A stretch of DNA of 64,000 nucleotides from Oxalobacteraceae bacterium (GCA_027490255.1 JAIXYM010000038.1:6233-70232); one strand, 5' to 3'. Shown: positions 34,692 through 51,839, counted from the first letter of the stretch. Numbers and translations are program-made. Notes: generated by a model from the sequence alone, not told the origin.

Positions 34692-35945
34692 TCAGCGATC
34701 AATCTCGCCGAACACGATGTCCTGGGTACCAATAATCGTTACTGCGTCAGCGATCATGTGCCCTTTCGCCATTTCATTGAGTCCCTGCAGGTGCGCATAA
34801 CCAGGCGCACGTATCTTCAGTCGGTAAGGCTTGTTCGCGCCGTCGGATACCAGATAGATACCAAACTCGCCTTTGGGATGCTCTACCGCTGCATAGGCCT
34901 CACCCTCAGGCACATGAAAACCTTCGGTGAATAACTTGAAGTGGTGAATCAGCTCTTCCATGTTCGACTTCATGTCGACGCGTGACGGCGGTGCGACCTT
35001 GTGGTTATCGCTCATCACCGGACCAGGATGATTGCGCAGCCATTCGATACATTGCTTGATGATGCGATTGGACTGACGCATTTCTTCAATACGAACCAGA
35101 TAGCGGTCATAGCAATCACCATTCACGCCGACGGGAATGTCGAAATCCATCAGGTCATAGACTTCGTAGGGCTGCTTCTTGCGCAAATCCCAGGCAATGC
35201 CCGAACCACGCAGCATGGGGCCGGTAAAGCCCATCGCCAGCGCACGTTCAGGTGATACGACACCGATACCTACTAGTCGCTGTTTCCAGATACGGTTGTC
35301 CGTCAGCAGTGTCTCGTATTCATCAACATAAGTCGGGAAACGATTGGTAAAGTCCTCAACGAAATCGAGCAAAGAACCCTGGCGATTTTCATTCAACCGA
35401 GCCATCGCCTTGTCATTGCGAATCAAGGATGCGGTGTACTGTGGCATGCTCTCCGGCAGGTCACGATAGACACCACCGGGACGGTAATAAGCAGCGTGCA
35501 GGCGCGCACCCGACACAGCTTCATAGCAATCCATTAGATCTTCACGCTCGCGGAAGGCGTAAAGGAACACGCCCATCGCACCCACGTCAAGCGCGTGCGC
35601 GCCCAACCACAGCAGATGATTCAGAAGACGAGTTATCTCATCAAACATCACGCGAATGTATTGCGCGCGCAGCGGTACTTCCAAGCCAAGTAGCTTCTCA
35701 ATGGCCATCACATACGCATGCTCATTGCACATCATCGATACATAATCGAGACGATCCATGTAGGGCACGGACTGCAGATAGGTACGCGTTTCAGCCAGTT
35801 TCTCGGTCGCGCGATGCAACAAGCCGATATGCGGATCAGCGCGCTGAATTACCTCGCCATCGAGTTCCAGCACTAGACGCAACACCCCATGCGCAGCAGG
35901 ATGCTGAGGGCCAAAATTGAGGGTGTAGTTCTTGATTTCAGCCAC
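34692..35945 (-). CDS. nuoD: NADH-quinone oxidoreductase subunit D
   Basis: [35 protein letters not shown]. The functional start is GTG at 35945 (417 aa), with an SD (GGAG) supplied by the upstream repeat spacer. Confidence 0.97.
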
Positions 35946-36235
35946 GACGCATCTCCCGCAACAAAACTTTGTTGCGCAGACCGGTGTATCTCTCAATTTC
36001 GGTGCAGGCTAACTTCGCGCTAGCGAAGTTAAGCGCACATCGCGCGCGGCCGGAGCCAAAATTGAGCGTGTAGTTCTTGATTTCAGCCACGATGCATCTC
36101 CCGCAACACAACTTTGTTACGCAGACCGGTGTATCTCTCAATTTCGGTGCAGGCTAACTTCGCGCTAGCGAAGTTAAGCGCGCATCGCGCGCGGCCGGAG
36201 CCAAAATTTAAGGTGTAGTTTTTTATCTCAGCCAT
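35911..36235 (-). repeat. Tandem array with a 145-bp period: three copies of the first 35 nt of nuoD separated by two 110-bp hairpin-rich spacers
   Basis: nuoD-start copies at 36201-36235, 36056-36090 and 35911-35945. Spacers 36091-36200 and 35946-36055 differ at 4 of 110 positions. Confidence 0.97.
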
Positions 36236-36237
36236 GA

Positions 36238-36834
36238 TTATTTCACCCCGTAATTCTCTTCGCGAATCACGCGCGGCACGTTTTCGCGCGGCTCGATAGT
36301 GACTGGCTGATAAATCACACGCTTTTGCTCAGGGTCGTAGCGCATCTCGACATAACCGCTGACAGGAAAATCTTTGCGGAACGGATGACCAATAAAACCA
36401 TAATCGGTGAGGATACGTCGCAGGTCATCGTGACCTTCAAACAAGATGCCAAACAAATCGAAGGCTTCACGCTCGTACCAATTAGCGGAGTTCCACAAAT
36501 CACTTACCGAGGGAGCCACAGGCAAATCATCATCGGGGGCAAAGGTACGCACACGAAGGCGCCAGTTGTGGGTGACGGACATCAGGTGCGAAACGACAGC
36601 GAAGCGCGCACCATGCCATGCACCATCACCATAGGATTCGTAATCGACACCGCACAGATCGAGCAATTGCTCAAAACGCAGCGAGGCATGGTCACGCAGG
36701 CTTTGCATCACCGACAAATATTCGGCCGCAGCCACAACGACTGTGATTTCGCCGAGCGCGACTGATACCGAACGGACGCGATCACCCAAGACTTCTTGAA
36801 GCGCCGATTCCAGTGTTACAAGTTTGGTTGTCAT
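36238..36834 (-). CDS. nuoC: NADH-quinone oxidoreductase subunit C
   Basis: [45 protein letters not shown]. Confidence 0.97.
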
Positions 36835-36851
36835 GATCCTGGCTTATCGTT

Positions 36852-37328
36852 TCAGCGTGCGATGGTGTTGGTTCGCCGAATTTTGTTTTGCAATTGCATG
36901 ATTCCGTACAACAGCGCCTCTGCGGTAGGCGGGCAACCAGGCACATAAATATCGACGGGCACAATACGATCACAACCTCGGACAACCGAATACGAGTAGT
37001 GATAGTAACCACCGCCATTCGCGCAAGAGCCCATGGAAATTACCCATCGTGGCTCGGCCATCTGGTCGTACACCTTGCGCAACGCGGGCGCCATTTTGTT
37101 GCAAAGCGTACCGGCGACGATCATCACATCCGATTGTCTTGGCGATGGACGAAAGACGACGCCAAAACGGTCGAGGTCATAGCGCGAAGCGCCCGCATGC
37201 ATCATTTCAACAGCGCAGCAGGCCAGCCCGAAGGTCATCGGCCACAATGAGCCGGTGCGCGTCCAGTTGATCAGTTTATCGGCCGTCGTGGTGACAAAGC
37301 CTTCGTTCATGATTCCGTCAATCGCCAT
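36852..37328 (-). CDS. nuoB: NADH-quinone oxidoreductase subunit B
   Basis: [29 protein letters not shown]. Confidence 0.98.

Positions 37329-49844: not shown

Positions 49845-51839
<1,995 letters not shown>

Follow-up and report, generated by a model that had tools for sequence, protein, structure and literature searches.

Palindromic insertions with a conserved open frame at the nuoC-nuoD junction of Oxalobacteraceae and their putative role in a ribosome relay

The DNA analyzed here is a stretch of 64,000 nt from an Oxalobacteraceae bacterium (GCA_027490255.1, JAIXYM010000038.1:6233-70232), referred to below as the window; the genome it belongs to is called the window genome. Between the complex I genes nuoC and nuoD, the window carries a tandem array of hairpin-rich units, each headed by a copy of the nuoD start and each open in one frame as a mini-ORF. 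The locus raises the question of why these frames are open, whether by chance, for the sake of the encoded peptides, or as a passage for ribosomes from nuoC to nuoD. A preliminary description of the window had proposed the passage, with a role for the peptides, which carry the NuoD N-terminus, as the alternative. We compared the array with the same junction in congeneric species and with other loci carrying the same hairpin core.

The tandem array at the nuoC-nuoD junction

Reading of the minus strand together with a listing of the ORFs bore out both mini-ORFs, their coordinates and the 8-nt overlaps of the preliminary description (Table 1). The nuoC stop (TAA, 36240-36238) is followed by TC and then by the ATG at 36235, and the native SD within the nuoC 3' end (GGGGTGA) is the SD that serves mini-ORF 1. 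The stretch leading from the nuoC end into the initial codons of mini-ORF 1 was identical to that of the empty-site relative L063, and displaced copy 1 nearly matched the real nuoD start of that species. Mini-ORF 1 stops at the TGA inside the following GTGGCTGA, and this arrangement is repeated at mini-ORF 2, so that the two 8-nt stop/start overlaps are located at 36090-36083 and 35945-35938.

Table 1. Features of the nuoC-nuoD junction in the window (positions counted from the first nucleotide of the window)
Feature	Position	Strand	Remarks
nuoC, NADH dehydrogenase 30-kDa subunit	36238..36834	-	ORF; Pfam PF00329 (Complex1_30kDa), E 1e-45
Mini-ORF 1, 50 codons	36083..36235	-	ancestral nuoD start position, 2 nt past nuoC stop
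Displaced nuoD start copy 1, codons 1-12, ATGGCTGAGATAAAAAAC...	36200..36235	-	resident-type allele
Spacer 1	36091..36199	-	H1, H2, inverted flank copy, variable filler with third hairpin and SD
Hairpin H1 in spacer 1	36192-36178	-	
Conserved hairpin H2, TTAACTTCGC-loop-GCGAAGTTAGC, in spacer 1	36177-36153	-	
SD GGGAGA in spacer 1 filler	36102-36097	-	
Mini-ORF 2, 50 codons, GTG start	35938..36090	-	stop is the TGA inside GTGGCTGA of real nuoD
Spacer 2	35946..36054	-	96% identity to spacer 1
H2 in spacer 2	36032-36008	-	
SD GGGAGA in spacer 2	35957-35952	-	
Real nuoD, 49-kDa subunit, GTG start	34692..35945	-	Pfam PF00346 (Complex1_49kDa), E 7e-119
Whole tandem array, 145 nt x 2.3	35910..36238	-	TRF, 93% matches

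Each 145-nt unit consists of a 36-nt copy of the nuoD start and a 109-nt hairpin spacer, and the third repeat copy is the first 36 nt of the real nuoD. The nuoD-start copies within the window genome differed at synonymous sites only, and copies 2 and 3 represent the allele that accompanies the unit in other lineages. The spacers contain the strong hairpins GCGCGC-loop-GCGCGC and AACTTCGC-loop-GCGAAGTT. On the 3' side of both hairpins lies CCGAAATTGAG, an inverted copy of the repeat end (flank), and the filler contains a third hairpin and the SD, 6 nt ahead of the next GTG. The 5' end of the spacer (UCC) was predicted to pair with the SD; on the sense strand, the spacer gave unremarkable fold z-scores of -0.8 to -1.2. 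The Rfam scan of 35400-36900 returned no match at E up to 5, and no promoter or terminator was predicted in 35700-36500. H1 to H3 were also considered as intrinsic terminators at nuo and rejected on the negative terminator scan.

Pfam families were found for NuoB, NuoC, NuoD and NuoE, and none for the mini-ORFs. The real nuoD also carries the conserved 20-residue stretch. Beyond nuoE, nine more minus-strand ORFs with the sizes and order expected of nuoF to nuoN extend down to 22892. The preliminary description had counted 11 nuo genes downstream of the insert (nuoD to nuoN), and this count was right, nuoF to nuoN being assigned by size and order only. Taken in the window genome alone, the 50-codon open frame was only weakly beyond chance, because a spacer of 37 codons will fairly often lack stops in any one frame and because the second copy is no independent observation.

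Occupied and empty junctions in related genomes

The genus is represented by 57 species genomes, and in 51 of them a conserved 10-residue nuoD motif located the nuoC-nuoD junction. Twenty-three of these junctions were occupied and 28 were empty. In the empty junctions, the nuoD ATG lies 0-4 nt past the nuoC stop or overlaps it as TAATG (L056), and this state is the ancestral coupled arrangement. Among the occupied species, 16 had one 145-nt unit, five had one 112-nt unit, one had an 82-nt unit and two had two units, namely the window genome and L010, which combines a 112-nt and a 145-nt unit. The core hairpins are gone from the 112-nt class, and the 82-nt unit arose through deletion of the core, a loss of 63 nt that preserves the frame.

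In all 25 units, the ORF opens 0-2 nt after the nuoC stop, has no internal stop and closes at the TGA of xTG-GCT-GAA in the next start, giving an xTGGCTGA overlap. The ORFs comprise 50, 39 and 29 codons in the 145-, 112- and 82-nt units, and every unit length is 1 mod 3. The unit of L053 has lost most of its identity (MLDTQSNLLKMSSRRAHRALEV...), including most of the core identity, yet its ORF still counts exactly 50 codons and the overlap is intact. No stop occurred in the relay frame of 15 sequence groups differing by at least 10%, against 0-4 and 2-6 in the other two frames. The filler alone (17 codons) was stop-free in eight of eight haplotypes at least 25% apart, with a product of shuffle probabilities of about 0.003, which makes this a test of moderate strength. 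Its length was constant at 46 nt over the eight sampled haplotypes, and an SD-like G-run stood 4-9 nt upstream of the real nuoD start in all filler haplotypes. In-frame stops and frame-breaking indels in homologous spacers, named in the preliminary description as the sign to look for against a relay, were found in none of the 25 nuo units from 23 species, although units at one locus share ancestry and such counts are incompletely independent. Across genomes, the open frame was far beyond chance.

Copies of the core elsewhere in the genus were nearly all located at the ftsW-murG junction, where the same hairpin core lies antisense to the genes in 20 congeners and in three other genera. Within the genus, 29 genomes, including the window genome, were empty at this junction, with an ATGA overlap between the two genes, and 20 were occupied. 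Among the 20 occupied junctions, 16 reach the end of ftsW (one of them fully and one partly N-masked), and four are cut by contig ends. The readable ORFs start at the ATG within the ftsW ATGA and stop in the ATGA that belongs either to the following unit or to murG. All 18 fully readable units, forming 17 sequence groups, were open from ATGA to ATGA; they came from 15 genomes of the genus and from L115, L116 (Noviherbaspirillum) and L147 of three other genera. Their ORFs fell into eight length classes of 34, 35, 37, 40, 44, 59, 67 and 119 codons, with unit lengths of 101 to 356 nt that are all 2 mod 3. The relay frame had zero stops and the other frames had 1-6, and the four contig-truncated arrays were also open. 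Thus the frame test gave the same outcome at ftsW-murG, with frame, start position and overlap kept in all readable units of 22 species.

The number of units was 1-2 at nuo and from one to at least three at fts. Over both loci, at least nine length-changing events were counted, all of them multiples of 3, for which the chance was calculated as about (1/3)^9. At ftsW-murG, L078 and the third unit of L110 carry a different palindromic element (GGCGGGTTTCGC...CTCTACCCGCC) that follows the same phase rule. In these two genomes, the unrelated element (GGCGGGTTTCGC...CTCTACCCGCCCTA...TAGGGCGGGTAGAG) formed in-phase ATGA-to-ATGA ORFs of 67 and 40 codons. Architecture and phylogenetic persistence of the insertions, and the conservation of frame, phase and overlap, were observed at two loci. 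In the window genome, contig C28 (at its end) and contig C71 (at its start) both break off within about 90 nt of the murG start, where they overlap each other; ftsW-murG is itself empty in this genome.

The 3' end of argF served as an informal negative control on a small scale. In L217, where the downstream gene overlaps (TGATG), the same core has formed a relay at this site; it forms none in L171, L178 and L208, which have no coupled gene, showing that openness of the element is not automatic. The relay evidence is limited to nuo, fts and the hand-checked argF sites, since a permissive walk over 120 family loci gave many spurious chains.

On the nuoC tree of 45 species, the occupied or empty state changed at least 8-9 times, and sister pairs of opposite state were found. 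The 112- and 145-nt classes were intermixed in one clade, to which L010, with both types, belongs. This pattern is consistent with units often being lost when the duplicated starts recombine, combined with a spread of the occupied allele by homologous recombination. The real nuoD start was GTG in 20 of 23 occupied species versus one of 28 empty ones (L070, the sister of an occupied species). Codons 10-12 of nuoD read mostly AAC TTC GGN in empty-site species; TTT GG was found in the displaced and the real copy of all occupied species, and the left end of the element is TTTTGG. The codon pattern suggests that the element may have a T-run target preference or that microhomology existed at the insertion point.

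Frame, peptide and a candidate ribosome relay

The filler was saturated (pS 0.53, pN 0.44), with a pN/pS of 0.82. The core gave 0.74, with pN and pS both low, which means conservation at the nucleotide level. Codons 2-12 of the real nuoD gave 0.01, and the displaced nuoD start of the 50-codon class gave 0.21. In this class, the displaced copy differed from the real start of its own genome at 0-7 of 33 nt; the difference was 14 in L053. The N-terminus has decayed in some lineages to MATFNNSVLNN, the reading of the 112-nt class, or to MLDTQSNLLKMS; the displaced copy is unrefreshed in the 112-nt class and in L053. The low value for the displaced start and the synonymous-only differences are explained by the origin of the copies, which are true nuoD starts of resident or donor lineages. 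A peptide that is not conserved (0.82 and 0.74, against 0.01 for the real start) points to selection on openness and translatability and not on the product.

We therefore turn to the relay itself, for which we put the probability at roughly 0.8: a frame-kept insert would pass ribosomes from nuoC through the mini-ORF or mini-ORFs to nuoD, the peptides being by-products. The sequence data support this proposal of the preliminary description, as frame and overlap are kept despite a saturated filler and through three length classes at nuo and eight at fts. A small structured palindromic element, made of an outer stem, the variable H1 and the conserved H2, sits at what had been a tight, coupled nuoC-nuoD junction, with a duplication of about 36-38 nt of the nuoD start on its flanks. 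The upstream copy retains the whole native initiation region of nuoD (the SD in the nuoC 3' end, spacing, ATG and first codons), and because this region is complete, mini-ORF 1 is probably translated about as well as nuoD of empty-site species. Given such translation, a single phase would be harmless. Read-through in the nuoD frame would yield an N-terminally extended NuoD, and the +1 frame would bring ribosomes about 70 nt into nuoD with its start occluded; in the -1 frame, termination would occur at GTGGCTGA with reinitiation possible. Selection would keep the insert open in this phase and hold the unit length at 1 mod 3.

Ribosomes would stop at the TGA in xTG-GCT-GAA, just past the filler SD, and reinitiate there, or their transit might at least melt hairpins H1 to H3 and expose the next start. 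The melting step is treated as a possibility, because the fold z-scores of the spacer do not stand out. In the window genome, the duplicated unit would make this a two-step relay, nuoC > mini-ORF1 > mini-ORF2 > nuoD. According to published work, termination-reinitiation coupling requires an overlap or a very short distance (PMC6728339, PMC10666635) and is common for subunits of heteromeric complexes (PMC10666635). An untranslated hairpin insert of 145 or 290 nt would break the nuoC-nuoD coupling. The benefit of the relay would be preserved translation of nuoD and probably also unbroken ribosome cover of the operon mRNA; it is plausible that the operon is shielded from Rho polarity in this way. 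Translation of the mini-ORFs, reinitiation and protection from Rho or RNases are what we infer from the conserved arrangement.

The open frames might instead be an unselected by-product of a GC-rich palindrome that was open in one frame at insertion and was inherited in that form. H2 alone closes two of the three frames whichever way it is oriented, which gives every tolerated copy a phased appearance, and each locus possibly had a single origin with later spread via recombination. Part of the openness is indeed built into the element, the conserved H2 allowing one open frame per orientation. However, this explanation does not account for a saturated filler that is stop-free in all eight diverged haplotypes, for three plus eight length classes that are every one in phase, for the L053 unit, which without most of the core identity still has 50 codons and the overlap, or for the lack of relays at uncoupled argF ends, and we judge it very unlikely. 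The near invariance of H2 across Burkholderiales, the H1 pairing kept across 79 sequences and the constant length of the filler would agree with a constraint on a fixed-geometry RNA or DNA structure, such as a protein-binding or processing site, in which the phase is incidental. Such a constraint, however, predicts neither that length changes are all multiples of three nor that one frame is stop-free and start and overlap are exactly conserved, and it leaves unexplained why core-less units (112 and 82 nt) and units of another element follow the same rule; it appears highly improbable to us.

The idea that the 50-aa peptides are functional, for example as NuoD N-terminus mimics in complex I assembly, draws on the pN/pS of the displaced start and on the synonymous-only differences of the window copies, but both are explained by the copies being real nuoD starts (copy 1 resembling that of L063). 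The filler evolves near neutrality, the peptides measure 29, 39 or 50 aa and belong to no Pfam family, the N-terminus decays where it is unrefreshed, and unrelated peptides serve the same job at ftsW-murG. This alternative of the preliminary description was thus left unsupported, and we give it hardly any credence. A bypass in which ribosomes would leave the first GGC and land at the real nuoD was considered as well and rejected, because in every species the real gene is equipped with an SD and a start codon, and because the copy needed for take-off is decayed in the 112-nt class. A different concern is that the second unit of the window genome may be an assembly artefact in which two strain alleles of a single-unit locus were joined: the assembly consists of 166 contigs, most congeners have one unit, and the two units differ at few positions. 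Against this, L010 has two clearly distinct tandem units and ftsW-murG arrays reach at least three; we consider the artefact unlikely, and the relay conclusion would be unaffected, holding for single units. Finally, the frame would be conserved equally well if selection acted against harmful read-through into nuoD in a wrong frame and coupling brought no benefit.

The palindromic element family and known counterparts

A pattern scan with one genome per species detected the H2 hairpin in at least 120 genomes across Burkholderiales, with hosts in Paraburkholderia, Cupriavidus, Polaromonas, Rhodoferax, Curvibacter, Hylemonella, Pelomonas, Methylotenera and Noviherbaspirillum. Among the matches listed, 14 of 120 were at nuo or fts. 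Several public MAG records of the Oxalobacteraceae genus (L118, L146, L149, L151 and L216) bear the titles 'uncultured Bifidobacterium sp.' or 'Bordetella parapertussis', labels that look taxonomically wrong. The family consensus consists of (T)TTT, GGCTNCGGCC, H1, TTAACTTCGC-loop-GCGAAGTTAGC and CTNCGNCGAAA, with an imperfect terminal complementarity (TTTTGGC...GCCGAAA). H1 occurred in 79 distinct sequences, and a perfect stem of at least 5 bp was present in 90 of 129 copies versus 29 in shuffles; as H1 lengths vary, its pairing was assessed by this count of hairpins against shuffles. The copies lie 3' of T-runs, often in terminator tails, at gene 3' ends or in the groES-groEL spacer, and a direct repeat of the flank of 20-74 nt brackets 32 of 100 single-copy members.

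Copy number was low, with two copies of spacer and core in the window genome, both at nuo, and 0-5 per congener. These numbers do not agree with a high-copy REP or BIME, and a genome-wide REP or MITE in the window genome was likewise rejected, spacer and core being confined to nuo. An assignment to MITEs failed as well, because the flank duplications are 20-74 nt long and variable and not short fixed target-site duplications.

Other sites with related arrangements were noted. The ilvC 3' end (window 49845-50302, minus strand) is followed by tandem units of about 150 nt, each with the last 14 ilvC codons copied (recoded at synonymous sites only), a hairpin spacer and a terminator; the architecture of gene-terminus copy and hairpins matches that at nuo, and the spacer sequence is different. 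In L163, L167 and L220 (Polaromonas and relatives), the core is located in the groES-groEL spacer, where it adjoins a terminator-like hairpin made of an inverted flank copy. In L113, an uncultured betaproteobacterium, the core apparently lies in frame within the 3' portion of a gene, where the KECGLH motif is duplicated, and this copy may be intragenic and translated in the manner of an RPE.

The relay may represent one aspect of a so far undescribed group of protein-less, Y-shaped hairpin cassettes distributed over the Burkholderiales. These would insert on the 3' side of T-runs at the ends of genes, a single event also duplicating 20-74 nt of the gene end, so that this end, its SD and its coupling overlap would be rebuilt by a self-healing, non-canonical mechanism; they would spread between species by homologous recombination and be lost when the duplicated flanks recombine. 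We offer this broader picture tentatively and regard it as rather doubtful.

The closest published counterpart is the mycobacterial MIRU. According to the account of Supply et al. (1997) in PMC12548453, the stop of its ORF overlaps the downstream start and insertion has little effect on expression. Like the present element, MIRUs are short repeats, often in tandem and variable in copy number, located at start codons or operon stop/start junctions, with an internal ORF overlapping the downstream start and a unit length phased so that tandem copies chain. The nuo/fts insertions were found exactly at sites of the 0-4 nt/TAATG type (nuo) or the ATGA type (fts); the internal ORF was present in 25 of 25 nuo units and in all readable fts units, and phasing and copy-number variation occurred at both loci. 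By this architecture, the element would belong to the MIRU-type class. It is not known to be related to MIRU in sequence; with a different host phylum and a strongly palindromic, hairpin-forming core, homology would not be expected. Unlike MIRU, its core works in either orientation and, among the matches listed, lies mostly outside junctions; it is flanked by a 20-74-nt duplication of a gene terminus, and the nuo overlap is 8 nt and out of frame (GTGGCTGA) rather than ATGA. Frame selection is moreover documented here over about 45 species-level instances.

The BREs of Bordetella (Hot et al., 2011, PMC3110155) are also betaproteobacterial, GC-rich and intergenic, about 90 bp long, and sometimes in tandem with variable copy number, some copies overlapping ORF ends. 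However, the TTAACTTCGC/GCGAAGTTA hairpin is missing from the printed BRE sequences, whose only common feature with the present element is a TTTTGGCCGCGGGCC-like start, and no relay or coupling was described for them. An identity with BREs was rejected, as AAGTTA, TTAACTT and GAAGTTAG had 0 occurrences in the BRE supplement (PMC3110155), where BREs read TTTTTTTTTGGCCGCGGGCCGCCCAAGGCAAAAAAGCC....

Rickettsia RPEs end up within the translated host protein (review PMC10969869). RPEs and in-frame MITEs (PMC10969869) resemble the present case as palindromic repeats tolerated in essential genes through staying translatable, whereas the insert described here forms a cistron of its own between two genes. 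Synthetic bicistronic designs and 'delivery' uORFs (PMC12548453, its reference 78) likewise have a short leader ORF that holds the SD of the target gene and a stop/start overlap, with expression insensitive to local RNA structure; in contrast to these designs, the nuo case is natural, insertion-derived and chained. REPs and BIMEs share hairpin repeats between co-transcribed genes, but REPs are high-copy, untranslated and located in true intergenic spacers, while the present family is low-copy and occupies former overlaps. A literature search on REP and coupling in Burkholderia returned nothing relevant.

For annotation, such mini-ORFs should not be taken for protein genes, and the real nuoD start of the window genome lies 290 nt downstream of the apparent one. 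The units may also serve synthetic biology as natural bicistronic-design parts. The present results extend the MIRU principle, published for mycobacteria, to Betaproteobacteria with a different, palindromic element. About 45 species-level instances at two loci, with at least two element types and eleven length classes, were all in phase. Such uniformity is unusually clean comparative evidence for natural selection policing the continuity of ribosome passage where insertions have entered essential operons, here those of complex I and of the dcw cell-wall cluster, and it suggests a general rule for which junk insertions operons tolerate.
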